Positions 5,568 to 42,290 of a stretch of DNA of 64,000 bases are shown piece after piece. The translations under genes and the position numbers were made by a program. The notes beneath the pieces are model-generated. The model saw only the letters and a list, made by a program, of their open reading frames with translations, did no database searches and was not told the origin of the DNA. This DNA is from an uncultured Pseudomonadales bacterium (lineage in GTDB: Bacteria > Patescibacteriota > Microgenomatia > UBA1400 > UBA12028). Position 1 is the first letter of the stretch; every line of letters begins with the position of its first letter. The stretch covers positions 134,412 to 198,411 of the forward strand of contig CAZDWN010000003.1 of the NCBI GenBank assembly GCA_964509365.1. Direction: 5' to 3'.

Positions 5568-5645
5568 GAAGCAAAAGTGTATCATCTAGTCTCGATAGTG
5601 AAGGTAAGAAAAGATACTTACTGATTGCTTACAATTTTTTTACAC

Positions 5646-7948: not shown

Positions 7949-9196
7949 ATGAAAATTCACTCAAAACACGTCCTCAGTGGCAGCTTTCTCGTTTCAGCCG
8001 TAATTGGCTCAAACTTTCTCAACTTTTTATTTAACGCCTTGCTGGGTCGTTGGCTCTCATTTGAAAACTTTGGACTGATCACGCTTATCATCACCTTTTA
8101 TTACGTTTCCTCAATATTCACCAATGCTCTCTCAGGGACTATCAATTTTTCAGTCTCGACGATGGAAGGAAACAATGAGCAAGACAGGGCAGAGGTGTTT
8201 TATCCAATGGTCGTCAAAAAAAGTTTGATGGCAGCACTCATCGGGAGCGGTCTGTGGGCAATTTGCATTCCACTCCTGATGACATTTTTTCATTCTGGTT
8301 CTCCGTGGCCATTTCTCGCTTTTATACCGATACTCATCGGCAGTGTCTACGCGTATGCCACGATCGGATATTTCCAAGGTTCACTTCGATTTGGAAGTGC
8401 CGGTGCTGTCATGATCGCGGAGCCGATTGTCAAACTCATCGCAGGAATAGCCCTCACTCTCGTTGGGCTCGGTGTCCTTGCTTACCTTTCGCTCCCGCTC
8501 TCACTCGTCGGCGCGGCGGCGATCGGTTTCATCCTCATCCAGAAAACGAACACTCGATCAAAGTCGGTCTCTTCAAAGTCTTTTGCTTTTCCTTGGCATT
8601 TCTTTCTGACTTCGCTGGCAGCCGGTATTGGATCGACAGTCTTTTTTAGTCTCGATATTTTCTTAGTGCGACACTACTTTAGTTCTACGTTGAGTGGTCA
8701 ATATGCGTTAGTCTCTTTGATCGGGAAGATGGTGTACTTTTTTGCCGTGCTTCCAAATATATTTACGCTTCCGATTGTAGCCAGGACAAGAGATGAGAGT
8801 GAGATCATGCGACTTTTTTTGATCGTCCTCGGATCGACGATCGCCCTTTGTGTCGTCGCTTGGGTTGGACTTGTCGGCCTGGGTTGGTTGTTCGTGCCGT
8901 TACTCTTTGGAGCAAAAGCAAATGCAATCCTCACGCTCCTGCCACAGTATGTATTGGGAATTTCGCTCTATTCTATTGCAAGTGTCATCATTGGATTTCA
9001 GGTCGTGAAGAAACGGTACATTTTTGGATATATTTCACTTCTTACTGGAATCATATTTGCGATCTTGATGATGATGGGGCATTCATCTCTCTCTGTAGTG
9101 ATCTCGAACCTTGTTCTTACTTGTCTATTACTTTTGTCAGGTGTAATAGTCCTATATTTATTCTACCCAAGGAGGGCCGTGTCTCATGCAAAATAA
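7949..9196 (+). CDS. polysaccharide biosynthesis protein / oligosaccharide flippase (Wzx/MOP superfamily)
   Basis: 415 aa with about 12-14 TM helices; sits within the glycan gene cluster. Confidence 0.55.
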   Translation: MKIHSKHVLSGSFLVSAVIGSNFLNFLFNALLGRWLSFENFGLITLIITFYYVSSIFTNALSGTINFSVSTMEGNNEQDRAEVFYPMVVKKSLMAALIGSGLWAICIPLLMTFFHSGSPWPFLAFIPILIGSVYAYATIGYFQGSLRFGSAGAVMIAEPIVKLIAGIALTLVGLGVLAYLSLPLSLVGAAAIGFILIQKTNTRSKSVSSKSFAFPWHFFLTSLAAGIGSTVFFSLDIFLVRHYFSSTLSGQYALVSLIGKMVYFFAVLPNIFTLPIVARTRDESEIMRLFLIVLGSTIALCVVAWVGLVGLGWLFVPLLFGAKANAILTLLPQYVLGISLYSIASVIIGFQVVKKRYIFGYISLLTGIIFAILMMMGHSSLSVVISNLVLTCLLLLSGVIVLYLFYPRRAVSHAK

Positions 9197-10124
9197 ACTA
9201 CCAATCTCCATCTGCGTACCTGCGTATAACGAAGGTAAAAACATCTCACTGATTTTGGAAGCGTTGACGAGTCAAGTGACAGATCGTGTGCAGATCAATA
9301 AGATTGTAGTAGTTTCCTCTGGGAGTACTGATAGCACTGAGGATCTCGTGACGCAGTTCATGCGTACAGACAAACGGGTCTTTTTAATTCGTCAACAAAA
9401 ACGCGCTGGCAAAGCGTCAGCGATCAATGCATTTTTAAAAATTATCGATGATCCAGTCGTCGTGATCGAGAGTGCAGATACGATCCCGAATCCAGATGCG
9501 ATCGAGCTGCTCTGTCAGCCTTTTCTGGACAATCCAGAAATCGGGATGACCGGTGGGGCACCAATCCCAGTCAATGATGAAAACACGTTTACCGGATACA
9601 TTGTGCATACCTGGTGGTGGTTCCATCGAAACATTCCTCGTTTTGGAGAAATTATTGCCTATCGCAATCTTTTACCTTCGATCTCAGAGACCACCGCGGT
9701 CGACGAGGCATTTATCCAAGCCAAGCTCATCCAATTGGGGTATAAAGCCGTACATGTCGACCAAGCTATTGTTCGCAATAAAGGACCGGAAACGGTCAAA
9801 GATTTGATCAAGCAACGTCGAAGGATATTCAACGGACACTCACGACTGTACCACGAGGAGGGCGTCAAGATTGACAACATGACCAAGTCAAGTCTGCATC
9901 TTCTCAGTGTCTACAAACCAAAAAGCTTCAAACATTTTTGCTGGTTAATTGGCGGTGTAGGGATCGAAGTCTATGCGAGACTGCTGGGTACCTATGATGC
10001 GAAAGTACTCAATATCAATCCTTTTGTGTGGGACACTGCAAAAAGCACAAAGAATGTCGCGAAGAAACATGGTGACGAAAGTAACGTTCATTCACTTGCA
10101 CTCTCGCAGGAACTTGCCCAATGA
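9186..10124 (+). CDS. glycosyltransferase family 2
   Basis: ISICVPAYNEGKNISLILEAL...VVVSSGSTDST... GT-A fold signature. The start overlaps the flippase stop by 11 nt. Confidence 0.65.
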   Translation: MQNKLPISICVPAYNEGKNISLILEALTSQVTDRVQINKIVVVSSGSTDSTEDLVTQFMRTDKRVFLIRQQKRAGKASAINAFLKIIDDPVVVIESADTIPNPDAIELLCQPFLDNPEIGMTGGAPIPVNDENTFTGYIVHTWWWFHRNIPRFGEIIAYRNLLPSISETTAVDEAFIQAKLIQLGYKAVHVDQAIVRNKGPETVKDLIKQRRRIFNGHSRLYHEEGVKIDNMTKSSLHLLSVYKPKSFKHFCWLIGGVGIEVYARLLGTYDAKVLNINPFVWDTAKSTKNVAKKHGDESNVHSLALSQELAQ

Positions 10125-11230
10125 TTGTCTTCTTAAATTTTGCACCGCTATCTTTTGGTGGAGGAGCCGAGCGCTGGATGGCATCTGTCGCATCAAGCCT
10201 CTCGAATGAAGAAGCAATCGAAGTCTTGCAGGTCGATCACTCCATCTCAAATATTTACTCTCGATTTGTGCTACATCGGAATTTTGATATTCGAGTCGAT
10301 ACATCAAGACTCGCATTCACACAGCGTTTGATCTCACTCTCGAGTTTTATTCCGTTCACCAGTTCTTGGCGACAGCTGCGACGCTCGATACGAGATGCAC
10401 GGACGATCTACACGCGCCTGGAACTCAATGAAATTTTGATCTTGTGCTATTTTGGTGGGTATGAAGTCATACGAAAGACTGTCATCGGACTCCACTCACC
10501 ACTCGAATATAACGCTGATGCGATCTCACTGTTAGGGAAATTTCATAATGCCGTCTACGGCTCGAGATTTATCCGAGCGGTTTTACGGGACGCCAAGCAT
10601 ATCCATGTACTCAATCCGGATCAGGAACGAAAAATGATGGTGACCTATCAGCTTCGCAATGTCGTCAGGATCCCAAACTTTATTGATGATGTGTCTGGAA
10701 AGATGAAAGACTCCGATCCGAGGTATCTCAATGTGTGTTTCCTAGGAGAGTTGGACAAACGCAAAGGAGCAGATGTCTTACTCGAACTCATAGAGAGAAG
10801 CCCAGACTTCATTCGCTATACCATCGCAGGTGACGGATATTTGAAGCAAGAGTATCAAAGACTTCCGAAGCCACAAGTAAAATATCTTGGATACTTGCAG
10901 CATGACAAAATCAGCGAGGTGCTCGAATCTACTGATGTGCTGTTCATGCCATCGCGGGCCGAAAGCTTTTCGCTCGTCTCGCTTGAAGCACTGGCTCATG
11001 GAGTGATCGTCGTATGCTCTTCAAAGATTTCCCCAAATACTTTGGAAGATTACCTCGTCATCAGTAAGAAAAATACCATTGAAGATTATGTAAAGATCCT
11101 CAGTGACTTGCACAAAGAGAAGAAAAAAGGTACGTTGCACTCTCGTCGCGCGAAAATCGCCAAAGAAATCAACAACAAATTTTCAAAAACAGCCACGATA
11201 AATAGACTCAAGAAAGAAATTTTTGATTGA
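10121..11230 (+). CDS. glycosyltransferase family 4 (GT1-like, retaining)
   Basis: C-terminal E..E motif region FMPSRAESFSLVSLEALAHGVIVVCS typical of GT4. 4-nt overlap with the upstream gene. Confidence 0.6.
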   Translation: MIVFLNFAPLSFGGGAERWMASVASSLSNEEAIEVLQVDHSISNIYSRFVLHRNFDIRVDTSRLAFTQRLISLSSFIPFTSSWRQLRRSIRDARTIYTRLELNEILILCYFGGYEVIRKTVIGLHSPLEYNADAISLLGKFHNAVYGSRFIRAVLRDAKHIHVLNPDQERKMMVTYQLRNVVRIPNFIDDVSGKMKDSDPRYLNVCFLGELDKRKGADVLLELIERSPDFIRYTIAGDGYLKQEYQRLPKPQVKYLGYLQHDKISEVLESTDVLFMPSRAESFSLVSLEALAHGVIVVCSSKISPNTLEDYLVISKKNTIEDYVKILSDLHKEKKKGTLHSRRAKIAKEINNKFSKTATINRLKKEIFD

Positions 11231-12044
11231 ACTCATGAAACCAAAATTAAGCATCATCATGTCTACTTACAATGACGAGAAATACATTCGTCAGGCATTA
11301 CAAAGTATTTTGGATCAGACTCTTCAAGAGTGGGAACTCATAATCATAAACGACAAATCTACAGATTCGACTGAATCAATCATTTTTGAAATGTTTAAAA
11401 ATGATAAGCGACTGAAATATCTGAAAAACTCCGAACAAAAGGGAGTTACGATAAATATTATCAAATGCATGGAAATGGCAAAGACTGAGCTAGTCGCTCG
11501 CCTTGATGGTGATGATTATTGGCTCAGTCCGAGGAAATTGGAACGACAATACAAAATAATGGTTGGAGACCCATCAATTGGAATATTAGGTACTTGGGCT
11601 AAAGTGGTAGATCCAGATGGAAAAACTCTGTACAAAATAGAGTATCCCATCGCTGATGAGCGTATGAGACCACGAATCCTTCGTGAAAATCCATTTGTCA
11701 CGAGCAGCATCATGTTTCGAAAGCCCAGTAACTATGAGCTGAGTTTCTTTGACCAAGTGAATAGATATGCCGATGATTTCAATCTAGTACTTCACATAGG
11801 ATTGAAAAAGAAGTTTCAAAATCTAAATCGATATTACTCAGCTTATAGAATGAATCCCGCTGGCATCAGTCAAAGTAAACATAAACTGCAGATTGATGAC
11901 ACCATGAGGACAGCAAAAGCTTTCAAAAAAGATTATGACGGGTACAGGTTTGCGAAGTTACTTTGGACACTCCGTAAACATTACCCCGTTTGGCTTAAAG
12001 GAAAACTGTCCATGCGAATAAAGAAACTCATGAAATTTTATTAA
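11223..12044 (+). CDS. glycosyltransferase family 2
   Basis: LSIIMSTYNDEKYIRQALQSILDQTLQEWELIIINDKSTDST...RLDGDDYW (DxD). Confidence 0.65.
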   Translation: MIELMKPKLSIIMSTYNDEKYIRQALQSILDQTLQEWELIIINDKSTDSTESIIFEMFKNDKRLKYLKNSEQKGVTINIIKCMEMAKTELVARLDGDDYWLSPRKLERQYKIMVGDPSIGILGTWAKVVDPDGKTLYKIEYPIADERMRPRILRENPFVTSSIMFRKPSNYELSFFDQVNRYADDFNLVLHIGLKKKFQNLNRYYSAYRMNPAGISQSKHKLQIDDTMRTAKAFKKDYDGYRFAKLLWTLRKHYPVWLKGKLSMRIKKLMKFY

Positions 12045-12061: not shown

Positions 12062-12907
12062 ATGAAAATGACTAAAAGAGACAGGATGTTCAGTTTTTTG
12101 GAAAATTTACTACAGTGCGCCAAATTCAACGGTATCTTAATTGCATTTCGAATACATTTCCATTATGTAGTAAGTAGTTTTTCTCTCTCTAAAGATTCCA
12201 AAAAGTACCGTTTTTTGAAGTTCGATGTTGAGTTTATGGATGTTCAGTCTCTTCGAAATATGTTGTTTGAGCTTTTTGGCTTTAACTCTTACTTCTTTAA
12301 GTCGGAACAAATCAATCCAGTAATAATAGATATTGGAGCAAACATTGGGGATTCCATTTTTTACTTCAAATGGCTATATCCCGAAGCTGAAATATTTGCA
12401 TTTGAGCCTCATCCCGAAGCGTTTGCAATGCTAAAAAGAAATATTAAAAAAAATTCCTTCTCCAAAATTCATCCCTACAATGTTGGACTTTCTGATAAGA
12501 AACAGATTGTTGAGTTATTTGTGGGTGAGAGTAGTATTTTAGGTTCCTCAACGATTTTATCCGACGTAAAAAGAATGGATGGAATGAAAGAAGTCAGAAA
12601 GATAAGATTGGAGAAAGTGAGTACTCTAAAAGAGATCACTAAGTTAAAAAGGATAGATTTAATAAAAATTGATATCGAAGGAGCAGAATCTTCACTTTTT
12701 AATGACCTTCAGAAACTTTTCCCAGTTACAAAAAAGGTAATTATAGAATTTCATTTAGTCCCTGAAATCAGAAATAACTCTTTCGATAATATTGTAAATC
12801 TTCTTCGTAAACATGGATTAGAACCGAATATTGCGGGATTTTATCGTAGTGAAAAGAATGAAGCTACTCCTTTTGGCTCGTTATTGATTGCTGATAGAAA
12901 AGTATGA
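12062..12907 (+). CDS. FkbM family methyltransferase
   Basis: [15 protein letters not shown]...[10 protein letters not shown]...[12 protein letters not shown] motif set of FkbM-type SAM methyltransferases. Confidence 0.6.
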
Positions 12908-13425
12908 TGCAAATCCTAAAAAAAATTGAATACATCCCATCATACATTCGAGCGCGCATTCTAAGTGTGAGGTTTGGCACGATTGGAAATACGGTTTTTA
13001 TCAGAGAAAATTTCACCTATAGTTCGCCAAAAAATATTAGATTGGGTCATCATATCTACATAAATCACCATGTTGATTTGGGTGCCGACGCCTCTGGAAT
13101 TGAAATTGGAAATTTTGTCCAAATTGCACCTTACGTGACAATTATGAGCGCTATGCATGAACATGAGAGAACTGATATCCCAATGTACGAGCAGAAAGGT
13201 TATATATCCAAGAAAGTGATAATTGAAGATGATGTCTGGATTGGGTTGCGAGCGATAATTTTACCTGGAGTTAAAATTGGGAAGGGAGCAATAGTGGGAG
13301 CTGGATCAGTCGTCACCAAGAATGTGGAGAGTTACTCCGTTGTGGGAGGAGTTCCTGCAAAATTTATTCGCTCCAGATTGGTATCAAGAAATAATGGAAT
13401 TAAAGTGAGCATGAAGAAAACTTGA
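12904..13425 (+). CDS. sugar O-acetyltransferase, hexapeptide-repeat (left-handed beta-helix) family
   Basis: Repeated hexapeptides: [33 protein letters not shown]. Confidence 0.6.
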
Positions 13426-13548: not shown

Positions 13549-15153
13549 ATGTTTAATAAATTTTTTGCAAAACAACGTGAATCTGAGTACACACTTCCAG
13601 TAATGCTTTTTCTGGTTATCTTAAGTATTGTTGTCTTCCTCGTATATTTTAACCTCGGGAAACATCTGCCATACGCAGACTCGATGTCAAGGTTAGATAT
13701 TGCACGTAAAGTTGTTGATAATCTCAATCCTGGATTAGCGCAACTAGGATCCGTTTGGTTGCCACTACCTCAACTTCTAATGGTTCCTTTTGTCTGGAAT
13801 AATTATTTGTGGCAGAGCGGAATTGCAGGTGCGATAATGTCAATGAGTTCATTTATACTTGGAGGCTTCTTCCTTTATAAGTCTGCATTTCTTATAAGTA
13901 AAAGGTTTATCCCATCTTTTTTCACACTTTGTATTTATGCTTTGAATGTCAATGCTTTATACCTACAGACCACTGCCCTTTCTGAATGCGTTTTTATGTG
14001 TGCGCTATTCGGCGTCATGTATTTTTTCTTGCTATGGATAAATACTTATAAGCGCAGGCATCTACTTTTTGCTGCAATGGCAGTTTCTGCAATCACACTC
14101 ATTCGTTACGAGGGTATCGCTTTACTATTAGCTTCAATCGGCTTTGTTGCTGTCTACAGCTACTATCATGACCGCAGTTACAAGAAACTTGAGGGACAAC
14201 TTATCATGTACTGCTGTGTCGCGTGTCTGGGCTTTGCTCTCTGGACACTCTATTTGACTGCAATTTTCGGCGATCCCTTATTCTGGCTTCGTTATTATGG
14301 ATTCGGTCCAAAAATAATAATTCCTGGTGCAACTGTGTCGGTTCCAACCCAGGCGAAACCATTTATGGCCGCTGTATGGCAGTACTTTACATCGGTGACG
14401 TGGATGTCGGGCATCATACCAATTGTATTTGCCGTCGTAGGAGTTTGGATTGGATTAATACGATCGTACTTTTCCAAGTCATGGAATATTTTAGTGATTC
14501 TCATTCCAATGTCGATCTACTTGCTCATGGTCATGACTCTTCGAAGAAACACTCCTATCGTGCAACCGAATCTCAGTATGGAAAACATCATGTCTACGAA
14601 GACAAGCACAATGACGGGATTCAATATCCGCTACGGGATCATGATGCTGCCTATGGTCGCGTTACTTACTATTTATGTTTTTGATATCAAAAAAACATAT
14701 TACATACCAGCAATAGTCTTGTTCGCGATTTTCACGATTCAAGTGGTAAATACGTACGTCCCTAGATTTTCTCCAATCTACGAGATTCCCTTCGCAATTG
14801 GGAAGAAACCGGACATTAGCATGGTTAAGTGGATGCAAAAAAACTATACGGGGGGATATATCATGATGAGCGCTTCAGGCTTTGAAGATCAAATGTTTTT
14901 AATGGGTTTTCCATACCGTACGTATATCCATGAAGGAGCAGGGAAATACTGGACTGAAGCGCTGGATCGTCCGGCACGATATGCCGACTACATAATAATC
15001 GATTTTAGCCGTGAATCAGACACATTAGCGAAGGAATTTAAGAATAAACAATACTGGAACTGGGACTACAATCTTGTGTGGGAAGAAAAGGGTAGCAATG
15101 CAAAAATCTATAAGATTAAGACTCATCCAGATATAATTATTCAAGCTAACTAG
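13549..15153 (+). CDS. GT-C-fold-like polytopic membrane glycosyltransferase candidate, paralog 1 of 3
   Basis: About 11 TM helices with a first-loop acidic motif YADSMSRLDIARK, then GLAQLGSVWLPLPQ. C-terminal periplasmic-type domain with YIHEGAGKYW. First ATG is at 13549; the track start at 13534 is TTG. Confidence 0.55.
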   Translation: MFNKFFAKQRESEYTLPVMLFLVILSIVVFLVYFNLGKHLPYADSMSRLDIARKVVDNLNPGLAQLGSVWLPLPQLLMVPFVWNNYLWQSGIAGAIMSMSSFILGGFFLYKSAFLISKRFIPSFFTLCIYALNVNALYLQTTALSECVFMCALFGVMYFFLLWINTYKRRHLLFAAMAVSAITLIRYEGIALLLASIGFVAVYSYYHDRSYKKLEGQLIMYCCVACLGFALWTLYLTAIFGDPLFWLRYYGFGPKIIIPGATVSVPTQAKPFMAAVWQYFTSVTWMSGIIPIVFAVVGVWIGLIRSYFSKSWNILVILIPMSIYLLMVMTLRRNTPIVQPNLSMENIMSTKTSTMTGFNIRYGIMMLPMVALLTIYVFDIKKTYYIPAIVLFAIFTIQVVNTYVPRFSPIYEIPFAIGKKPDISMVKWMQKNYTGGYIMMSASGFEDQMFLMGFPYRTYIHEGAGKYWTEALDRPARYADYIIIDFSRESDTLAKEFKNKQYWNWDYNLVWEEKGSNAKIYKIKTHPDIIIQAN

Positions 15154-15259
15154 TTTTTTAACTTATCATAAAATGTAAGGATCTTGTAAGAGAAGCTCAT
15201 GTAAAGTATGCTGAACTCCTAAAGTGTTTGTTCCATTCACTTCCCAGGGTAGCGCACTT

Positions 15260-16876
15260 ATGAGTTCTTTTTTCTCTACCTGTAAGGGTCATTTTAATAA
15301 ATATTTTGATCTTTACGTTGTAAGCTTTCTCCTTCTCATAAGCCTCTTTTGCACCTGGCATTTCTTTCGATCCGAAAAAATACTCCTCTATGGTGATTCA
15401 CTCTCACGGCTGAATATATCAAGAAAGATTTTTGACAATATAACTCCGGGATTAGCTCAAATTGGAAATGTTTGGCTGCCGCTACCTCAGTTGGCAATGA
15501 TGCCTTTCGTAGCTAACAACTTTCTTTGGCACACTGGACTAGCAGGATCGATTGTATCGGCACTCACTTTCGTTTTAGGCGGACTTTACTTATATCGTTC
15601 AATTTTTCTGCTATCTAAATCTAAAATCACAGGAGCTATATCAATATGCATTTATGCTCTTAACATTAATTTAATGTACTTACAGACTACAGCAATGTCA
15701 GAATCATTTTTCTTGTGTGCAGTCAGTGCATCAATTTACTACTTCATTAAATGGCTAAAGACGGGTAATAAGATTCATTTAATCCCAGCTGCGATTGCAG
15801 TAAGCGCTATGACATTGATTCGTTATGAAGCCTTGGGGTTCTTATTTGCCTCAATTCCAATGGTATTTATTTTTACACTTTATGAGAAAAGAAATTACCA
15901 TAAGGCGGAAGGCAATGCCATTGTCTACGCTAGTCTAGCCTGCCTGGGATTTGCTCTTTGGTCTTTATATTTGGCTGCCATTTTTGGTGATCCGCTATTT
16001 TGGAAAAACTACTATATTGGTACTCATGTACTTGGGGACAGTAATACTCAGCTACATATATTTACTCATCATTTAAACTTTATTGAGGCTGTTTGGAAAT
16101 ATTTAACGGCAGTAGTTTGGATGAACGGACTGATTCCAACCGCAATTGCTACTTTAGGAATTCCAATTCTTCTGTGGAAATCATACAAGCAAAAAAACTA
16201 TTACTTTCTCCCCGTATTGCTTTCATTCTCAATGTTCGCATTTATGGTGTTAACATTGCAACGTAACACTCCGATAGATCAACCTCAACTTAGTATTCAG
16301 GCTCTGCGCTCAGACAGTACAAGTAATTTCCCCGAATTCAACATCAGTTATGGCTTGCTCATGCTTCCGGTTATTGTTTTACTATTTTCTTACGCTTTTA
16401 ATACACAATACAAGCTGGTCAAAGTACTGCTTGTTCTGCTATTCTCCGTACAGGTTTACTCATATTTTTATCCGACTTATTCGGTCATTTACCAAATTCC
16501 AATAAGTATTGGTGATAACATCACTCAAGGTACACTTAAGGAAAAGCAGATGGTCGAATGGATGAAAACTAATTATGACAATGGCTACATCATGATAAGT
16601 GCCCTTAAACATGATCCTCAAATGTTACAGTTTGGATTAGATTACAGAAACTATATTCATGAAGGAACTGGAAAATATTGGAAAGAATCAACTAGAGATC
16701 CTCAGCGATATGCAAAATGGATAATATTTGATTCGTATAATAAAGATGATCAAGTTACGAAATATTTGTTTAAATCATTAAATCTGGACTTTTTTTACAT
16801 CAAAGTATATGACAATGATGGAATGTTCGTTTATAAGATTAAGACTCATCCTGACATCATAATTCCACAGAATTGA
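15260..16876 (+). CDS. GT-C-fold-like polytopic membrane glycosyltransferase candidate, paralog 2 of 3
   Basis: Colinear with paralog 1: YGDSLSRLNISRK, GLAQIGNVWLPLPQ, YIHEGTGKYW, and C-terminus KIKTHPDIII shared with paralog 1. First ATG is at 15260. Confidence 0.55.
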   Translation: MSSFFSTCKGHFNKYFDLYVVSFLLLISLFCTWHFFRSEKILLYGDSLSRLNISRKIFDNITPGLAQIGNVWLPLPQLAMMPFVANNFLWHTGLAGSIVSALTFVLGGLYLYRSIFLLSKSKITGAISICIYALNINLMYLQTTAMSESFFLCAVSASIYYFIKWLKTGNKIHLIPAAIAVSAMTLIRYEALGFLFASIPMVFIFTLYEKRNYHKAEGNAIVYASLACLGFALWSLYLAAIFGDPLFWKNYYIGTHVLGDSNTQLHIFTHHLNFIEAVWKYLTAVVWMNGLIPTAIATLGIPILLWKSYKQKNYYFLPVLLSFSMFAFMVLTLQRNTPIDQPQLSIQALRSDSTSNFPEFNISYGLLMLPVIVLLFSYAFNTQYKLVKVLLVLLFSVQVYSYFYPTYSVIYQIPISIGDNITQGTLKEKQMVEWMKTNYDNGYIMISALKHDPQMLQFGLDYRNYIHEGTGKYWKESTRDPQRYAKWIIFDSYNKDDQVTKYLFKSLNLDFFYIKVYDNDGMFVYKIKTHPDIIIPQN

Positions 16877-16880
16877 CGAT

Positions 16881-18407
16881 ATGAATATCGGGGAGAAAGT
16901 ATCGGAAGCTTTTAACGCAAAAATCATCTTCATCATTGCTTTCATTCTCTCCGTCTCCGCGTGGTGGATATCGTATTCTCACAACCTCGTCCTCGTGTAT
17001 AACGACGGTGCTTCGCATCTCAATATCGCTCGACGGATCCTCGATAACTACACTCCAGGTGTCGCTCAAATCGGTACCGTGTGGCTACCATTTCCTCACG
17101 TCATGATGTTTTTCCTGGCATGGAATGATTATCTGTGGCATACGGCACTCGCAGGCAGTCTCGTCTCAATGTCGGCATATATTCTCTGTGTTGTCTTCAC
17201 CTACAAGATGATCGTCGAGATCACCAATAAAAAAATTGCGGGTCTAGTCGGCTCGCTAGTGATCGCTCTCAACCCCAATTTGCTCTATTTGCAAACGACT
17301 CCGATGACGGAGACGCTGCTCCTCGCGACATTTGTCATGACTGGATATTATCTGTCTCGGTATATGAATACGAAGAAAGTGTCGTATTTGATCGCGACGG
17401 GGATCGCGGTGATGTTTTCGACACTCATCCGCTATGACGGATGGTTTTTATTTGCGTCATTACTCCTGCTCATCCCGATTTGGGAAGTGATCGGTCCGGG
17501 GAAAAAGAAAGCGGAAGGCAGTTTCTTTTTGTTCGCCTCTGTGGGAGGACTCGGTATCCTCCTATGGATCGTATGGAATTGGGCGATCTTTGGTCAGCCA
17601 TTGTATTTCCTTTTTGGAGAGTACTCAGCGTATGCACAACAGCGAGTCCTCAGTGGTGTCGGCCAGCTCCCGACGGAAAAAAATATCGTCAATGCATTCA
17701 CCTATTTCATGTGGGCAGTGGTCGATAACAATGGGATCGTCCTCGTCATCTCGTCACTCATCTCACTGGTGCTGATCCCATTTTTCATGGCAAATAAAAA
17801 ATACTTGCATGTGATCTTGGCTGTCCTCTCTCCGTTTGTCTTTAATATCATCGCCCTCTACGCGGGCCAGTCAGCCATGAACGTCCCACAAGCCGCAGTC
17901 AATCCTGGACTTTTTAATATCCGCTACGGTCTCGTCATGATCCCTGGGATAGCGGTGATCTTGGGAGTATTGGCAGGGAAGCTCAAATATTCTTGGATAC
18001 TCGTCGTGTTGGTATTGGTCGCGCAATCGTATCTGTTTGTGCAAGCAGGCAAGCCAATCACGCTCGTCGACGGACAGAACGGCCTCATCAACACCTACTA
18101 TACGGTGGAGGCAAGTAAGTGGCTCGCAGTAAATTATCAGGGAGGATTAATTCTCACGAGTCTCGCGAGTCATGATGCATTCGTCGCACGCGCTGGCATC
18201 CCCATGCGAAACTATATCCATGAAGGGAATGCTGGGTATTGGGAAAAGGCACTGGTAAGACCATCAGACACCATAGAATATATTACGGTCCTCACATTTC
18301 CTCCGGATAGTGTCTACAAAAAACTTGCTGACAATCTCGACTTTCAGACCAATTATGTGAAGATACACAATTATGAAAAATTTGAAATTTATAAGCGTCG
18401 TTGGTAG
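16881..18407 (+). CDS. GT-C-fold-like polytopic membrane glycosyltransferase candidate, paralog 3 of 3
   Basis: YNDGASHLNIARR, GVAQIGTVWLPFPH, YIHEGNAGYW; more diverged than paralogs 1 and 2. Confidence 0.55.
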   Translation: MNIGEKVSEAFNAKIIFIIAFILSVSAWWISYSHNLVLVYNDGASHLNIARRILDNYTPGVAQIGTVWLPFPHVMMFFLAWNDYLWHTALAGSLVSMSAYILCVVFTYKMIVEITNKKIAGLVGSLVIALNPNLLYLQTTPMTETLLLATFVMTGYYLSRYMNTKKVSYLIATGIAVMFSTLIRYDGWFLFASLLLLIPIWEVIGPGKKKAEGSFFLFASVGGLGILLWIVWNWAIFGQPLYFLFGEYSAYAQQRVLSGVGQLPTEKNIVNAFTYFMWAVVDNNGIVLVISSLISLVLIPFFMANKKYLHVILAVLSPFVFNIIALYAGQSAMNVPQAAVNPGLFNIRYGLVMIPGIAVILGVLAGKLKYSWILVVLVLVAQSYLFVQAGKPITLVDGQNGLINTYYTVEASKWLAVNYQGGLILTSLASHDAFVARAGIPMRNYIHEGNAGYWEKALVRPSDTIEYITVLTFPPDSVYKKLADNLDFQTNYVKIHNYEKFEIYKRRW

Positions 18408-19626
18408 CATTTTCATCTGCTTGTTTGTCTTTACGCTGCGACCGGCATACGCCGATGAGTCGCCGGCAATTTGGAGCGTCCGCTCGGTAGATACGATGAA
18501 GCTCTCGCGCGATAAGGCTCGCGCCAAGAAAGATGACAAATCTTTCGATGATGTGATACGCCGTGAGGTCAGTGAGATCAAAGATCTGGGGGCAAATTAT
18601 GTCGCCCTCGGAACTCCCTATGATGATGAGTTCTTGCCGTATCTACGTCGATGGGTGGCTATCGCACGTGAGAATGGACTCCACGTATGGTATCGAGGAA
18701 CGTTTTCATCCTACGAAGGTTGGTTTGATCATAGTAAAAGCCTTTCACCAAACAATCTCCTAGAAGCAGGCAAGAAATTTATCGCAAAGAATCAAGACTT
18801 ATTTGAAGATGGAGATATCTTTGACCTGTGTCCGGAATGTGAAAATGGCGGGTATTGGCCGCAGCCAAGAAAAGATGGAGACTTCAATCAGTTTATACAG
18901 GAAAAAAACAAAGTCCTCACCGAAGCTTTTGCCAGCATCAACAAAAAAGTAATCGTCAATTATCCTTCTATCATTGGAGGACGATCAAAAGATGTGCTTA
19001 CACAAGACACGTTTGACGCACTTGGAAATGTCACTGCGATTGATCATTATGCCAACGATGCCAAAAGCTATGATGAGTACATGCACTATTTTATGGATGA
19101 GCATCGCACAAAAGTGTTGTTTAGTGAGTTTGGCGCACCGATCCCGGATTTGCATGGAAAGATGACACAAGCATCACAAGCAGCCTTTGTCCGGAGCGTA
19201 TTTGAGACACTGTATGCACATGGAAAGGATGTCATAGGAGTAAATTATTGGGTACTCTCTGGTGGTACCACATCTCTGTATGACGAGACGGCTCCCAGAG
19301 AAGTCGTGGAAGTAATAAAAGATTACTATCAACCTGGAGTACTGAGTGGAACAGTCAAAAATAGCCTGCGACAACCGCTCGCCCACATCGCCATACAGAT
19401 TGACGATCATGAGCAAGGTGAAACTGATGCTACAGGAAGTTTTGCGGTCGCAGTGCCCGCTGGCGAGCATACATTCTCGACTGACTCGGTTTCGTATCGA
19501 CCATATAGTCTGCACGTATCTTCAAAAAGGAATGAGAAGCAGAGCCAGGATATTATTTTGTATCCGACAGCGAAGTCTCTGTGGTACTCTATTCGAGAGC
19601 GATTTTTACTTTTTACAAACCTATGA
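18373..19626 (+). CDS. secreted TIM-barrel glycoside hydrolase candidate (clan GH-A-like) with C-terminal carboxypeptidase-regulatory-like beta-sandwich
   Basis: Signal peptide MKNLKFISVVGSIFICLFVFTLRPAYA. CPECENGG (acid/base-like) and FSEFGAP (nucleophile-like TEFG motif). C-terminal GTVKN...DATGSFAVAVPAGEHTF domain. Confidence 0.4.
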   Translation: MKNLKFISVVGSIFICLFVFTLRPAYADESPAIWSVRSVDTMKLSRDKARAKKDDKSFDDVIRREVSEIKDLGANYVALGTPYDDEFLPYLRRWVAIARENGLHVWYRGTFSSYEGWFDHSKSLSPNNLLEAGKKFIAKNQDLFEDGDIFDLCPECENGGYWPQPRKDGDFNQFIQEKNKVLTEAFASINKKVIVNYPSIIGGRSKDVLTQDTFDALGNVTAIDHYANDAKSYDEYMHYFMDEHRTKVLFSEFGAPIPDLHGKMTQASQAAFVRSVFETLYAHGKDVIGVNYWVLSGGTTSLYDETAPREVVEVIKDYYQPGVLSGTVKNSLRQPLAHIAIQIDDHEQGETDATGSFAVAVPAGEHTFSTDSVSYRPYSLHVSSKRNEKQSQDIILYPTAKSLWYSIRERFLLFTNL

Positions 19627-37913: not shown

Positions 37914-38855
37914 CTATCCAATTCCGTAGATTAAGAGCATGGTTGCGGCGCCCCAGAGGCCTGCAGTGATGAGAAGTGGGCGATCGCGAAGAAGTACACG
38001 CTCTGGACTCTCACCTTCATTACTTTCGTACACGAGTTGCAGGTAACGCATCACTCCAAAAATCACGAGTGGGACAGTGATCATCAGCCATTTCTCCGAG
38101 ACAAAAGTCCGTGGCAGTCGAGCGAATAAGCTCACAAACAGCACACCTTGCGGCTTAAACTCATTGCGCTGAAATGTATACAGCGCGTACGTAAGCCAAG
38201 TCGTATTAGCAAACATACCCACATAGACATCAAGTAGTCGCTGCGTGTAGTGAGACAGCGTCTCGCGATGTTTTGAGAGATCTTCGCCATATCCGCGAAG
38301 GAGCGTTCGTTCGCTTTGGCGTTTGCCGACGGCAAGAAAGAGTGACGCTGAGATGACCGTGAGCAGGAACCACACACTCATATGCAAGTTCACGACGACA
38401 GCTCCAGCATAGACTCTGATCAAGAAACCAGCGGCGATGATCATCACATCAATAATAGGGACGTGCTTGAGTTTGTAGGTGTATGCCAGATGCAACAAGA
38501 TGTACGCAATTCCGAGGAAAAAGAAAAACGTCGAGATCATAAACGCCCAGATCATAGCGACGGTGATGAGCGCGATGGCCAATCCCCATGCGACTTTCGC
38601 TGAGAGCTGTCCCGATGCAATCGGACGCTTTTTCTTAAACGGATGGAGGCGATCTTGCGGTGCATCGATAATGTCGTTGATCAAATACACGCTCGACGAG
38701 AGCATACAAAAGATCACGACGCCAATCGACACAAATTGGAAATATCCGGGTTCAAAGAAAAAGCCAGAAAACACGAGTGCCGCGTAGAGGGAGAAGTTCT
38801 TTATCCACTGTCGCGGTCTGATCTCACGAAGAATGATAACCCCAAGCGAAGCCAT
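37914..38855 (-). CDS. UbiA-family prenyl-phosphate phosphoribosyltransferase (decaprenyl-phosphate phosphoribosyltransferase / DPPR-synthase-like)
   Basis: YLINDIIDAPQDRLHPFKKKRPIASGQLS matches the DPPR-synthase motif NDxxDxxxDRxHPxKxxRPIAxG; about 8 TM helices. Start at the internal MASLGVII (38855) overlaps the upstream gene by 55 nt. Confidence 0.55.
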   Translation of the reverse strand: MASLGVIILREIRPRQWIKNFSLYAALVFSGFFFEPGYFQFVSIGVVIFCMLSSSVYLINDIIDAPQDRLHPFKKKRPIASGQLSAKVAWGLAIALITVAMIWAFMISTFFFFLGIAYILLHLAYTYKLKHVPIIDVMIIAAGFLIRVYAGAVVVNLHMSVWFLLTVISASLFLAVGKRQSERTLLRGYGEDLSKHRETLSHYTQRLLDVYVGMFANTTWLTYALYTFQRNEFKPQGVLFVSLFARLPRTFVSEKWLMITVPLVIFGVMRYLQLVYESNEGESPERVLLRDRPLLITAGLWGAATMLLIYGIG

Positions 38856-39841
38856 GTGCCAATCATACACACGATCGCTAGAATTAGCAAAATAGTGAAT
38901 ATTTTTTGCCCGCTCGTCAGCTGCAATGAGATCAAACCGAGTATAAAAGCACTCAACCAATACAACATGGCTACTTGGTTTTTGCTGTAGCCGCGATCCA
39001 GCAGCGCGTGATGCAGATGAGAACGATCTCCCCAAAACGGTGATTTTTTGTGAGCTATACGCCTAGCTATCACATAGACAGCGTCAGCCATTGGGACGGC
39101 GAGGACGAGCATCGCGGTCGCAAGCTTAGCTCCCGAGAGAATAGAAAGGACAGCGAGTAAGAAACCTGCCAATGTGCTGGCTCCAAATCCTGCCATCATT
39201 TTTTGAGGGAATTTATTCCAGTATAAAAATCCAAGGTATGCTCCGGCTGTCAGAATCGAAAACGTGAAAACGACATGCTGCTTTGGATCCGGGAAAAAAC
39301 GAGTGGAGAGTGCTGCGATCGTCAACGCAGCGATGGCGACGTAGCCTGGCATCTGTCCATCGAGCCCAGTCGAAAAATTCACTATGTTCATGCACCACAC
39401 AATCCAGACGACCGCGAGTACTGATGAGATGAGTGCTACTTGCGAGAAGACGATGACTCCTCCAAATGGGTTGGTAATGTATGGGATCGTCAGCCCAAAT
39501 AAAATGGGGATGACTGCAGCGACAATTTGAAAGCCAAGGCGAAGGATCGGATGCGGATCGGCAATATCATCCCAAGTACCGATGAGAATAAGTAGCAGAA
39601 TTGAGAGACAAATGCCGATGATGAGTGGAGAGATTGGTATGAAGAACGGAATGCTTGCAAGGATAGCGATGCCAGCGACGAGACCGCCACCACGCGCCAA
39701 CGGTCGCGTGTGAATCACTTTTGGATGATTCGTCTTTGTTGGATCATCGAGCCAGTGATGTTTGGTGTAGATGCGAATGACGAGAGGACCGAGGAGGAGG
39801 GCAAAAATCAGTGGGACTAGAAAAGAGAGAACAAGTATCAT
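38801..39841 (-). CDS. MraY/WecA-family polyprenyl-phosphate N-acetylhexosamine-1-phosphate transferase (glycosyltransferase family 4, initiating enzyme)
   Basis: HPKVIHTRPLARGGGLVAGI, IGTWDDIADP and NIVNFSTGLDG motifs; about 10 TM helices. Start at MILVLSF with an ATGA start/stop overlap to the upstream gene. Confidence 0.65.
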   Translation of the reverse strand: MILVLSFLVPLIFALLLGPLVIRIYTKHHWLDDPTKTNHPKVIHTRPLARGGGLVAGIAILASIPFFIPISPLIIGICLSILLLILIGTWDDIADPHPILRLGFQIVAAVIPILFGLTIPYITNPFGGVIVFSQVALISSVLAVVWIVWCMNIVNFSTGLDGQMPGYVAIAALTIAALSTRFFPDPKQHVVFTFSILTAGAYLGFLYWNKFPQKMMAGFGASTLAGFLLAVLSILSGAKLATAMLVLAVPMADAVYVIARRIAHKKSPFWGDRSHLHHALLDRGYSKNQVAMLYWLSAFILGLISLQLTSGQKIFTILLILAIVCMIGTWLRLGLSFFVRSDRDSG

Positions 39842-40158
39842 ATGGTGATCACCACAATATGGATGAGTGCAACGACTAAAATTGCGAGGGGTACCAGTGA
39901 TGACCACAAAATAATTCGACCAAATGTCGCATCCATTTTTTTTGTTAGTCGGATAAAAAAGACGTGAAGCAGTGCAATGAAGATCACCGCAACTGGAAAT
40001 ACAAACAAAAATGCTTTTTGATCAAGCTGTTGTTCCGAGACTGGGAGTGAGTACCACAAAGGGATTTGATTTGGTCCAAAGAAGAAACCAACGGCGCTGA
40101 CCGCGAGCGTGAGCACTGAGACGAAAATGAACACTACCTCTTTTGAGTTCCATTTCAT
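39838..40158 (-). CDS. small membrane protein
   Basis: 106 aa with 3 TM helices; translationally coupled (ATGA) to the MraY-like gene. Confidence 0.35.
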   Translation of the reverse strand: MKWNSKEVVFIFVSVLTLAVSAVGFFFGPNQIPLWYSLPVSEQQLDQKAFLFVFPVAVIFIALLHVFFIRLTKKMDATFGRIILWSSLVPLAILVVALIHIVVITI

Positions 40159-40178
40159 AGTGAATCTCTAGAGTATAC

Positions 40179-41753
40179 CTAGTGGAGGTCTATTTTGCGA
40201 TAGGTCACGAATGGGGCGATCGAAGCGACTTGCACGTATTGACCGGTCATGTACGCAGCCAATCCCGGATAGGGAGTCTTGTAGTTTGTATCGATGACAA
40301 TATATTTTGGCTTCATTTTTTCAAGGGCTTCGGTCGTCACATCAAATCCATTGAAATCTTGGATGTGGTAACTACTCGTATATTTCCCCGGTGGCAATCT
40401 TCTCGAGAGTGCATAGATCATCGGATAATCTCCCCACACAAAAATCCGATCGTCGGGAGTCGTCTGCGCTGCAATTCGCTCTGACGTCGCATACATCGCT
40501 GGAAGATTTGGATCAAAATGCGCATAGTATCGGTCTTTTGTCTGCCTGCGCGTGACAAACGAAATGTAGTTTTGATAGTACGGCATCAATGGATAGTACC
40601 AGAATTTGATCGCCCAAATCCCATAGATCCCGATGACCAGCGCGGTCACTGCAGTAAGGATTGGAAGGAGTCGTACTCCTTTGGAGTGCTGCAAGAGAGA
40701 TTGTCCAAGAAAGACGACGAGCAACGAAGCTGGAGGGATCACTTGGATCAAGTAGTGAGGATAGGGCCGCTCAGCTAAGAAAGCTCCAAAAAGAGTCGCC
40801 GCAAACCACATTGCTAAAAATGTGAGTTTGTTTCCGTTCTTTTTTGAGAGAAGTAGCAATGCAATCATCGCGATCCCAAATCCCACCGCTCGATTTTTCA
40901 GTCCTGATGATCCGACATTGCTTGCGGCATGCGTGCCAGTCGCCCAAGATGATAAGTATCCGATGTTTTGAGCAAATGCAGCACTCACATATTCTTTGCC
41001 GACACCCTTGGCACTGTAATACGCAAAGGAGAGGAGAATAGGAAGGAGGAAGGCCATCGAAAAAGAGATAAGTGGCAAGAGATAAGAGCCAAGATGAAAA
41101 TCTCTTTTTTGTACACGCCAAACAGTGAATGGCACAACGATCAAAAAGAAAAAGCCGGCGGCAAACGCATCAAAGAGCGATGGAACTTTGATCAAAAATG
41201 CAAGCGAAAAAAAGAAACCGGAGAGCACAATATTTTTCATTTGCCATTTGTCATTGGTCATTTGTCTCCATAGGAGGTACATCCCGACTATGGCAGGCAT
41301 CACCATGAAGATCTCCCCATTGGCGATTGCGCCTTCCGCGAAAAACGGGATGATCGCAAAAAGCACAGTTGCGATCGTAGAGTAAGTCACTCTTGGAAAT
41401 TGGATTCCCCCGATACTCGTAAACCCAGGGTGATCTGCGTCATCCAATAGCAGATGTGCCAGTCGTTCAAATGCGACGATCGCGACGCTATTCCATGCGA
41501 GTAAAAAAAATCGAAACCAGAAGACGGAACCAGTGAGCGCCGCCATGAAGTAGATCACCGGTGGCTTGTTGTCATGAATATCTTTGTACAGTGTCAGCCC
41601 ATGTCGGATCGCATTGCCGAGCGTGAGATAGATCCCTTCGTCACCGTACCAATAGGGTTCGAGGAGGCTCGGGAGCCTCAGGATCGCACACGCACACAGT
41701 ATCCAAATCAAATATTCATGTCGAAGTAAGAAAGCTTTTATTTTTAGAGGCAT
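40179..41753 (-). CDS. GT-C family membrane glycosyltransferase (ArnT/PMT-like, GT39/GT83-type)
   Basis: First-loop motif WYGDEGIYLTLGNAI (the DE motif of ArnT/PMT enzymes) and 11-13 TM helices. Confidence 0.6.
   Translation of the reverse strand: MPLKIKAFLLRHEYLIWILCACAILRLPSLLEPYWYGDEGIYLTLGNAIRHGLTLYKDIHDNKPPVIYFMAALTGSVFWFRFFLLAWNSVAIVAFERLAHLLLDDADHPGFTSIGGIQFPRVTYSTIATVLFAIIPFFAEGAIANGEIFMVMPAIVGMYLLWRQMTNDKWQMKNIVLSGFFFSLAFLIKVPSLFDAFAAGFFFLIVVPFTVWRVQKRDFHLGSYLLPLISFSMAFLLPILLSFAYYSAKGVGKEYVSAAFAQNIGYLSSWATGTHAASNVGSSGLKNRAVGFGIAMIALLLLSKKNGNKLTFLAMWFAATLFGAFLAERPYPHYLIQVIPPASLLVVFLGQSLLQHSKGVRLLPILTAVTALVIGIYGIWAIKFWYYPLMPYYQNYISFVTRRQTKDRYYAHFDPNLPAMYATSERIAAQTTPDDRIFVWGDYPMIYALSRRLPPGKYTSSYHIQDFNGFDVTTEALEKMKPKYIVIDTNYKTPYPGLAAYMTGQYVQVASIAPFVTYRKIDLH
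41246..41264 (+). repeat. 19-nt exact repeat copy B (ATTTGTCATTGGTCATTTG) within a TTGNCAT heptad array, inside coding sequence
   Basis: TTTTTCAT TTGCCAT TTGTCAT TGGTCAT TTGTCTCCAT. The reverse complement encodes QMTNDKWQM of the GT-C protein. Confidence 0.5.
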
Positions 41754-41768
41754 AGTGAACAGTTGTGA

Positions 41769-42290
41769 CTACGATTCTTCAATAATTTGCACTATTTCAA
41801 CTTTAGTTGAAAGTCTTGTGTTAGGCAAATAGAAAACGATCACTCTCACTGGTAGAGGAGAGGGTAGAGTTGCGAAGCTCATTAGTCTATCGTACTGGAA
41901 CTTTGAAATATGAACGCGAATGGGTTTAGACAAGTCTTGGAGCTTGATAAAATATTGCTGAAAAGTTCTTCCACCTCCTCCATGTATGACTTCCACAACA
42001 CCTTCATATCGTTGTTCAGAAGAAAATAGGTCTGCGAAGCCATTCTTTACTTGATTGGCTAGCAAGATAATAAACGTCAGAAGTACCGCAAAACCTAGGA
42101 GCGGACCTTGTGCATTCAGAAGTACAACAAAGAGTGATATGGCAGTAATAGAAGTTGCAAATGCTTCGATCCCTACGAGTGTTTTTAGACTGTCTGTAGA
42201 TATTTTCCCCAATATAAATGCAAAAACTATATCAAATATAAAATTTGTGAAAAAACCGAGTATGAAAAGTAAGTAAAACAGCTCGGTCAT
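41769..42290 (-). CDS. membrane-anchored hypothetical protein
   Basis: N-terminal hydrophobic region plus a soluble domain; 4-nt overlap with the upstream GT2. Confidence 0.35.
   Translation of the reverse strand: MTELFYLLFILGFFTNFIFDIVFAFILGKISTDSLKTLVGIEAFATSITAISLFVVLLNAQGPLLGFAVLLTFIILLANQVKNGFADLFSSEQRYEGVVEVIHGGGGRTFQQYFIKLQDLSKPIRVHISKFQYDRLMSFATLPSPLPVRVIVFYLPNTRLSTKVEIVQIIEES

Follow-up and report, generated by a model that had tools for sequence, protein, structure and literature searches.

Three tandem paralogs of a GT-C-fold family in a candidate surface-glycan cassette of Patescibacteria

Introduction

In the multi-component transmembrane glycosylation systems GtrA/GtrB/GtrC, CsbB/GtcA/YfhO, GacI/J/K/L and ArnC/ArnEF/ArnT, a GT2 enzyme loads a sugar on polyprenyl phosphate. 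The combination of a GT-A lipid-sugar synthase, a GtrA- or Wzx-type flippase and often a PMT_2-like GT-C glycosyltransferase is established for Gram-positive wall polymers, and the flippase of the streptococcal GacI/J/K/L system, GacK, is of the Wzx type (PMC8035078). Here we analyzed three consecutive genes for polytopic membrane proteins, termed par1, par2 and par3 (13549 to 18407), and their surroundings in a stretch of 64,000 nucleotides (nt) from contig CAZDWN010000003.1 of a patescibacterial genome assembly (GCA_964509365.1); this whole stretch is hereafter referred to as the window. The results support the assignment of the three proteins to one uncharacterized GT-C-fold glycosyltransferase family of Patescibacteria. 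What is new relative to the described systems is the family itself, which is large, centred on Patescibacteria and equipped with its own set of invariant residues, and the occurrence of two to three of its members in a fixed tandem order.

GT-Cs that differ in position or linkage specificity are familiar from mycobacteria, in which each enzyme of the Mpt/Aft/Emb series has its own. Patescibacteria, also known as the candidate phyla radiation (CPR), are ultra-small and mostly episymbiotic, and their surface must mediate the attachment to the host. To our knowledge, almost nothing has been established experimentally on the envelope glycans of these bacteria.

The three proteins share a GT-C fold

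A first-pass annotation, made from the nucleotide sequence and the list of open reading frames (ORFs), had described par1, par2 and par3 as three consecutive paralogs on the same strand. The ORF list and BLASTP bore out this description. The proteins par1 and par2 share 46% identity over 540 amino acids (aa) with an E of 1e-166, while par3 is 30% identical to par1 (E of 2e-61) and 32% identical to par2 (E of 2e-71). Identities of 47, 27 and 29% were also recorded for the three pairs. We adopted the starts at 13549, 15260 and 16881 because products of exactly 534, 538 and 508 aa, respectively, exist in a public protein collection. The genes are tightly packed, as only 4 nt separate par2 from par3 and the gene after par3 overlaps it by 35 nt. 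All of the motifs quoted in the first-pass annotation are present in the alignment of the three proteins. The first-loop motif reads YADSMSRLDIARK in par1, YGDSLSRLNISRK in par2 and YNDGASHLNIARR in par3, and the second motif reads PGLAQLGSVWLP, PGLAQIGNVWLP and PGVAQIGTVWLP in the same order. The C-terminal motif is YIHEGAGKYW in par1, YIHEGTGKYW in par2 and YIHEGNAGYW in par3. KIKTHPDIII indeed terminates both par1 and par2, though the motif belongs to the whole subfamily (consensus KIYKIKTKP). The DNA encoding this shared terminus is 88% identical over 34 nt, and the differences are synonymous. A search for DNA repeats among the three paralogs returned motif-length matches and no longer repeat, and on this ground a recent duplication or gene conversion among them was rejected.

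Searches of the PDB by sequence, with family profiles built from 3 and 50 sequences, gave no match at E ≤ 10, and the comparison of folds was needed for this reason. An AlphaFold2 model of par2, calculated from an alignment of 50 sequences, reached a predicted local distance difference test score (pLDDT) of 91.4 and a predicted template modeling score (pTM) of 0.92. When this model was searched with Foldseek, ranks 1 to 41 were all occupied by proteins of the GT-C fold, and the model shows the helical core conserved among GT-Cs within a polytopic membrane domain. Matches to the major facilitator superfamily and to G-protein-coupled receptors appeared only at Foldseek probabilities below 0.2 with TM-scores of about 0.1, and a transporter or another non-GT-C fold was rejected. 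The first-pass annotation had proposed a GT-C-like fold and had named two points on which the proposal could fail, namely the structural comparison and the conservation of an Asp in the first loop. No non-GT-C fold emerged from the former, and the Asp is kept in all of the aligned relatives (see below), so the GT-C-like reading is supported on both points.

The model can be read as 11 transmembrane (TM) helices with the N-terminus inside and the C-terminus outside, which agrees with the approximately 11 helices counted in the first-pass annotation. Under this reading, Lys and Arg make up 5 of the 29 residues (17%) in the inside loops and 9 of the 140 residues (6%) in the outside loops. The invariant polar residues and the compact C-terminal soluble domain of approximately 135 aa are thus predicted by the model to lie outside the membrane, as in the active-site layout of GT-Cs. 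The outside position of the C-terminus is also supported by natural fusions, in which the C-terminus of a GT-C is joined to glycoside hydrolase (GH) domains of the secreted type; the fused domains start directly after the position of their signal anchor.

With regard to known families, par3 matched Pfam PMT_2 (PF13231) with 29.1 bits against a gathering threshold of 26.1, par2 stayed below the threshold with 20.4 bits, and par1 yielded no match even at E ≤ 10. Nothing usable was found for the three proteins in NCBIfam. The identity of the paralogs to every solved GT-C ranges from 8 to 13%. Altogether, the earlier suggestion of a distinct subfamily holds, as no PDB or NCBIfam match was obtained by sequence and only par3 passed the PMT_2 threshold. 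Membership in the PMT family (GT39) was rejected, since the residue after the invariant Asp is Ala, Ser, Thr or Gly and no MIR domain was matched in Pfam. Membership in the oligosaccharyltransferases (GT66: STT3/PglB/AglB) was rejected on the motifs examined, WWDYG in the C-terminal domain and a DxD/DxE-type motif in loop 1, as WWDYG is absent. Pmt4 and ArnT (GT83) are 8–9% identical to the window proteins, which have neither the Asp-Glu pair nor MIR domains. The actinobacterial systems, Ppm1 with MptA/MptB/MptC/PimE for lipomannan and decaprenyl-phosphate-arabinose with AftA-D/EmbA-C for arabinan, show 6–10% identity and no shared family model. Furthermore, the window proteins are much smaller than Emb and AftD, and unlike the actinobacterial glycan builders they are encoded by a patescibacterium, with no sign of a mycolate-type envelope.

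Invariant residues

Conservation was counted over 370 aligned family members drawn from a wide range of lineages, with the numbering of par2. The loop-1 Asp (D46, in the context Y-x-D-[ASTG]) was found in 365 of the 365 aligned members and is located 9 residues after the TM1 helix of the par2 model. The following residue is Ala in 279, Ser in 50, Thr in 24 and Gly in 12 members, and Glu was never among the top residues. W72 is conserved in 367/367 members, E148, R188 and W234 are each conserved in 369/369, Q67 and P74 reach 99.5%, and the Arg of the FNIRYG motif is present in 366/367. The family's own invariant set consists of D46, Q67, W72, E148, R188-Y189, W234 and N361-R363. In the C-terminal I-H-E-G..YW motif, G469 and W474 are nearly invariant, while E468 and H467 are conserved in 91% and 69% of the members, respectively.

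The par1 protein retains the Asp, Glu, Arg and Trp residues as well as the Arg of FNIRYG, which is also kept in par3. Only par2 lacks this Arg and carries Ser at residue 363 (AGT, 16346-16348), a codon one base away from AGA and AGG. The substitution may point to a copy whose function is altered or lost, or it may stem from an error in the assembly. The remaining invariant residues are intact in all of the three paralogs.

Distribution and phylogeny

An exhaustive profile search recovered 954 clusters (at 50% identity) with E ≤ 1e-30 and 2,227 with E ≤ 1e-10, and 295 relatives came from a scan in which each species was represented by one genome. The vast majority of the named records are of Patescibacteria, including Microgenomates-type classes, Saccharimonadia, Dojkabacteria, WWE3 and some Parcubacteria. 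The cassette described below also occurs in many TPA_asm metagenome-assembled genomes titled 'uncultured Gammaproteobacteria' or 'Pseudomonadales' (loci L005, L006, L008, L009, L011-L014, L017 and others), of which the GT-Cs are up to 62% identical to those of the window and as close as those in records titled Microgenomates or Levyibacteriota. These titles are probably placeholders or a wrong taxonomy.

Five clades were resolved when 103 members, taken from 80 loci, were placed in a distance tree by the neighbor-joining method with 60 bootstrap replicates. The par1 protein grouped with the GT-C of L015 (68% identity) in 60/60 replicates and with L003|8377 in 52/60. The par2 protein grouped with the first GT-Cs of L001 (66%) and L022 (57%) in 60/60 replicates. 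The par3 protein grouped with its orthologs L003|11599, L022|10031 and L013|11471, which are the last GT-Cs of their loci (58–59%; 60/60 replicates). In none of the 60 replicates were par1 and par2 the closest relatives of each other. The tree thus separated the three proteins into three orthogroups, A1 (par1), A2 (par2) and B (par3). The tandem triplication put forward in the first-pass annotation stands insofar as there are three tandem paralogs; a recent local amplification does not, as the split among A1, A2 and B is ancient in the tree. As judged from the sequences, par1 to par3 are long-separated paralogs that have been kept side by side. L003 (GCA_900206355.1) shares with the window both the order A1-A2-B and the gene that comes next, and other loci have A1-B, A2-B, A2-D or A1-D-B. 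L015, L016, L018, L020 and L021 carry a single A-type copy. The retention of the old A1, A2 and B lineages in adjacent positions argues for non-redundant roles.

Partner genes in the window

The GT-C genes close a block of same-strand genes that starts with a bifunctional GT2, and a gene for a secreted or anchored glycosidase-like protein, P417, comes next (Table 1). A scan for promoters and terminators between 5000 and 21000 gave counts equal to the shuffled expectation and was uninformative on the operon structure.

Table 1. Positions of the genes discussed in the text (coordinates refer to the window)
Feature	Position	Strand	Remarks and evidence
GT-C paralog 1 (par1)	13549..15153	+	534 aa; orthogroup A1; alternative start 13534 = 539 aa
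GT-C paralog 2 (par2)	15260..16876	+	538 aa; orthogroup A2; alternative GTG start 15224 = 550 aa
GT-C paralog 3 (par3)	16881..18407	+	508 aa; orthogroup B
Bifunctional (dual) GT2, 737 aa	5723..7936	+	N-half DPMS/ArnC/GtrB-like, C-half BcsA-like processive membrane synthase; Pfam, PDB
Wzx-like (MOP family) flippase candidate	7949..9196	+	Pfam Polysacc_synt 32.2 bits vs cut-off 28.2
Soluble GT2	9186..10124	+	Pfam Glycos_transf_2 2.8e-21
GT4 (GT-B) glycosyltransferase	10121..11230	+	Pfam Glycos_transf_1 1.2e-18
Soluble GT2	11223..12044	+	Pfam Glycos_transf_2 3.1e-29; PDB matches
FkbM-type methyltransferase, glycan modification candidate	12062..12907	+	Pfam Methyltransf_21 1.9e-19
Hexapeptide-repeat acyltransferase, glycan modification candidate	12904..13425	+	Pfam Hexapep 3.1e-11
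P417, secreted/anchored clan GH-A (beta/alpha)8 glycosidase-like protein	18373..19626	+	C-terminal CarboxypepD_reg beta-sandwich
Possible second GH-A/GH5-like protein, 410 aa	4353..5585	-	BLAST cluster c18; weak evidence
Decaprenyl-phosphate phosphoribosyltransferase	37914..39035	-	NCBIfam NF008978, 229 bits vs cut-off 207
WecA/MraY-like transferase	38801..39907	-	
Polytopic protein, unconfirmed as GT-C	40179..41753	-	
Membrane GT2-like protein	42287..43783	-	

In the PDB search, residues 3-209 of the dual GT2 matched DPMS of Pyrococcus (5mlz; E of 5.6e-29), ArnC (3.3e-16) and GtrB (3.1e-13), and residues 342-635 matched BcsA, the catalytic subunit of cellulose synthase (1.9e-16). DPMS, ArnC and GtrB are enzymes that load a sugar on polyprenyl phosphate; a polyprenyl-phosphate GT2 of the GtrB/DPMS type is thus encoded together with the GT-Cs. 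The C-terminal half contains TED at 531 and QRSRW at 568, with hydrophobic segments on its flanks. For the first soluble GT2 after the Wzx-like gene, which has no TM segment, the best PDB matches were chondroitin synthase and a GT2. In several related loci, too, the acyltransferase gene is the one that immediately precedes the GT-C genes. P417 has a (beta/alpha)8 barrel with putative catalytic Glu residues after strands 4 and 7.

No significant Pfam match was obtained for the minus-strand ORF at 4353-5585. It clusters in BLAST (c18) with L013|14515-16080, which bears Pfam GH5 and fn3 domains, and GH5+fn3 proteins of this cluster flank the cassette in other genomes. This ORF may encode a second glycosidase of the island.

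The Wzx-like protein has approximately 12 hydrophobic segments, and in 12 loci its gene follows that of the dual GT2. Genes of the GtrA type were not found in the window operon. The presence of a Wzx-like gene raises the question of whether the GT-C-like proteins are instead polymerases of the Wzy type or ligases of the WaaL type, which would act on a Wzx-exported repeat unit and use polyprenyl-diphosphate-linked oligosaccharides. It fits this idea that there is no recognizable Wzy polymerase or ligase between 5723 and 19626. However, the operon contains no initiating phosphoglycosyltransferase, as the WecA-like gene lies 20 kb off (38801-39907), and it encodes a monophosphate-sugar synthase of the DPMS/GtrB type; fusions of the form GtrA::GtrB-like::GT-C exist in addition. 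We therefore regard a Wzy- or WaaL-type function as highly improbable.

Conservation of the cassette and locus types

Co-occurrence was assessed by clustering the neighbours of the GT-C genes in the 80 loci. Homologs of P417 were detected in 61 of the 80, nearly always right after the last GT-C. Among the 58 loci whose upstream sequence spans 8 kb or more, 40 contain a synthase-type GT2. Outside the window, the synthase-type GT2 is often part of a protein of 1,300-1,600 aa that also holds a DPMS-like part. These giant proteins are the first large ORF in L035, L037, L039, L042, L046, L051, L052, L061, L062, L075 and L081, and their membership in BLAST clusters indicates that they carry a GT4 part besides the DPMS-like and BcsA-like parts. 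Methyl-, acetyl- and pyruvyltransferases and deacetylases are present across loci. The dual GT2, the GT2/GT4 genes, two to three GT-C genes and P417 recur together in other genomes.

Two layouts were recognized. The layout of the window type comprises the double GT2, Wzx, glycosyltransferases with modifying enzymes, GT-C A, GT-C B or D, and P417. The commoner layout comprises glycosyltransferases, X515, a GT-C of clade C, P417, an LAxTG protein and a sortase. The latter was seen in L026-L082 (e.g. L064, 8377-14084), and its LAxTG protein is small with a Ser/Gly-rich linker. X515, which directly precedes the single clade-C GT-C, is a different polytopic protein of approximately 515 aa with no Pfam match. 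Its profile similarity to the GT-C family was not significant (hhalign E of 0.03, probability of 1.7%).

The sortase/LAxTG pair, together with the similarity to PMT_2, would suit a reading of the paralogs as protein O-glycosyltransferases, either PMT-like or similar to streptococcal PgtC2, that transfer a sugar from polyprenyl phosphate to Ser/Thr-rich proteins secreted or anchored to the wall (compare PMC12041528). Nevertheless, no such pair adjoins the cassette of the window, and the hallmarks of PMT, the Asp-Glu pair in loop 1 and a MIR match in Pfam, are absent. The strongest and most frequent partners, namely GH-A, the BcsA-like synthase and the methyl-, acetyl- and pyruvyltransferases, act on polysaccharides, and several of them are physically fused to a GT-C. 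Moreover, many bacterial GT-Cs of the PMT_2 type act on wall polymers (PMC8035078). Protein O-glycosylation as the function of the three paralogs is therefore considered unlikely.

Gene fusions

Fusions were sought among 150 representatives of the family, 47 of which are longer than 620 aa. A GT-C is fused to P417 in six of them (P0251, P0254, P0265, P0299, P0316 and P0318) and to GH5 in at least seven (P0087, P0295, P0297, P0315, P0334, P0384 and P0388). P0377 has the arrangement GT2::GT-C::GH113. The synthase-type GT2 precedes the GT-C in the same protein in P0330, P0362, P0366 and P0369, and the entire double GT2 (DPMS-GT2::synthase-GT2) does so in P0301. In P0382, a TM domain of the GtrA type, a GT2 and a GT-C are combined. 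By BLASTP, the GT-C::GH5 fusion P0087 showed no significant similarity to P417, and on this comparison of sequences P417 and the GH5 domains of the fusions belong to different GH-A families. Through the fusions, the GT-C is independently connected with a lipid-sugar synthase and its flippase, with a processive synthase and with a beta-glycosidase.

X515 is fused to a GT-C in P0278, and nearly all loci encode at least two different GT-C-like proteins side by side (A-B, A-D, A1-A2-B or X515-C). Such pairs could be subunits of one hetero-oligomeric GT-C complex in the manner of Pmt1-Pmt2 or EmbA-EmbB, so that the three paralogs would perform a single transfer. GT-Cs of the PMT and Emb families are generally known to work as dimers, and complexes of both families occur among the structural matches of the GT-C model. 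The Ser that is unique to par2, at a position where 366 of the 367 members have Arg, would then suit a regulatory or acceptor-binding pseudo-enzyme. On the other hand, all other invariant residues are intact in the three paralogs, no A-B fusion was found among the 150 representatives, and the five loci listed above make do with a single A-type copy. We judge a hetero-oligomer of this kind to be quite improbable.

Proposed glycosylation pathway

We consider it probable, with moderate confidence, that the cassette carries out an extracytoplasmic glycosylation of a surface glycan that depends on polyprenyl-phosphate-sugars, each paralog being responsible for a distinct step. We infer the donor, the acceptor, the role of the flippase, the way in which the paralogs share the work and the function of P417 as follows. 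The N-terminal half of the dual GT2 would take a sugar from its nucleotide-activated form and attach it to polyprenyl phosphate, and the lipid-linked sugar would be flipped to the outer face, for which the Wzx-like protein is the candidate. Each GT-C paralog would then transfer the sugar to the surface glycan at its own position or linkage, presumably by using the loop-1 Asp and the outer-face residues E148, R188-Y189, W234 and N361-R363-Y364. The most likely acceptor would be a beta-linked polymer that the BcsA-like half of the dual GT2 synthesizes and extrudes, and a glycan built up in the cytoplasm by the GT2 and GT4 enzymes may be an additional or alternative one. The secreted GH-A enzyme P417 may trim, remodel or transglycosylate the polymer, or help to recognize or bind it. 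It has been speculated that small GT-Cs may depend on a second protein for binding the acceptor (PMC8035078), and the last role would fit this idea. Sequential or linkage-specific transfers from a lipid-linked donor, as suggested in the first-pass annotation, would be in line with this pathway and are backed by the polyprenyl-phosphate-sugar synthase of the operon and by the fusions.

Several points weigh against the proposed pathway. D46 is equated with the catalytic Asp of ArnT and PglB from its position in the loop and its conservation, and par2, in which the FNIRYG Arg is missing, may be something other than a normal enzyme. What the Wzx-like protein exports could also be a conventional repeat unit. 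PMT_2, which comes nearest among the named families, takes its name from protein O-mannosyltransferases, and in the commonest type of locus elsewhere P417 is followed by the LAxTG protein, with its Ser/Gly-rich linker, and by a sortase, by which a protein acceptor is kept in play. In addition, we found no paper describing this family in CPR/Patescibacteria in the limited open-access and bioRxiv literature.

A bolder version of the pathway, which we regard as doubtful, takes the cassette as a so far unrecognized envelope polysaccharide machine typical of Patescibacteria. Its bifunctional GT2 would have two tasks, the extrusion of a beta-glycan and the synthesis of the lipid-linked sugar, and the dedicated set of GT-Cs may use this sugar to branch the nascent chain outside the cell. 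The tethered GH-A protein may act as a transglycosylase by which the polymer is cut and linked to the wall. The synthase::GT-C, GT-C::GH-A and X515::GT-C fusions may reflect one physical complex, and the complex may be coupled to a sortase-anchored surface protein in most lineages.

The extracytoplasmic glycosylation that we favour has much in common with the multi-component systems mentioned in the Introduction. Shared features are the GT2 for loading a sugar on polyprenyl phosphate, a flippase candidate of the Wzx type as in GacK, and a polytopic GT-C predicted to act outside the membrane; in addition, a natural GtrA-TM::GtrB-like GT2::GT-C fusion exists in P0382. In contrast to those systems, the GT-Cs of the window belong to a separate, unnamed family, and two to three different ones stand in tandem instead of one. 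The enzyme that makes the lipid-linked sugar forms one protein with a BcsA-like processive synthase here, and a glycosidase of clan GH-A is an almost obligatory partner that is sometimes fused. The synthase-dependent exopolysaccharide operons with a dedicated glycosidase, BcsA-BcsZ (cellulose), PgaC-PgaB and Psl-PslG, differ in having no GT-C. In the cassette, the synthase shares a polypeptide with a lipid-sugar synthase and, in some of the genomes, with a GT-C as well. No BcsB-like, PilZ-type c-di-GMP-binding or outer-membrane export component was recognized in the cassette.

Given the context, neither the fold nor the general role would surprise a specialist. Beyond that, a large unnamed GT-C family is defined with its invariant residues and with a set of partners confirmed by fusions, and the family and the cassette together are a testable candidate for the main surface-glycan pathway of Patescibacteria. 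An unusual design, in which donor synthase and processive synthase are one protein and a glycosidase is an almost constant partner, is added to the known lipid-sugar/GT-C systems. In terms of annotation, hundreds of 'hypothetical proteins' become predicted GT-C glycosyltransferases and GH-A enzymes, and the cassette provides a handle on the glycobiology of the CPR envelope.

Other loci in the window

The protein encoded at 40179-41753, which the first-pass annotation had listed as a fourth GT-C, could not be confirmed as such: neither Pfam, NCBIfam nor the PDB gave a match, and the comparison with the family by hhalign yielded an E of 0.19. It has approximately 12 hydrophobic segments and YGDEGIY in loop 1. 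A weak profile similarity was observed between this protein and X515 (hhalign E of 7.9e-5, probability of 61%). The minus-strand genes from 37914 to 43783 look like a second lipid-sugar system, and their layout resembles that of the pentofuranose three-component systems of PMC11127046.

Just past the island, the minus strand between 21076 and 29610 contains an ORF of 335 aa with a weak match to the adhesin head DUF2807, two ORFs of 1,096 and 948 aa with no Pfam match, and a 370-aa protein with PEGA and SH3 domains. These ORFs possibly encode surface proteins and are also possible targets of glycosylation.

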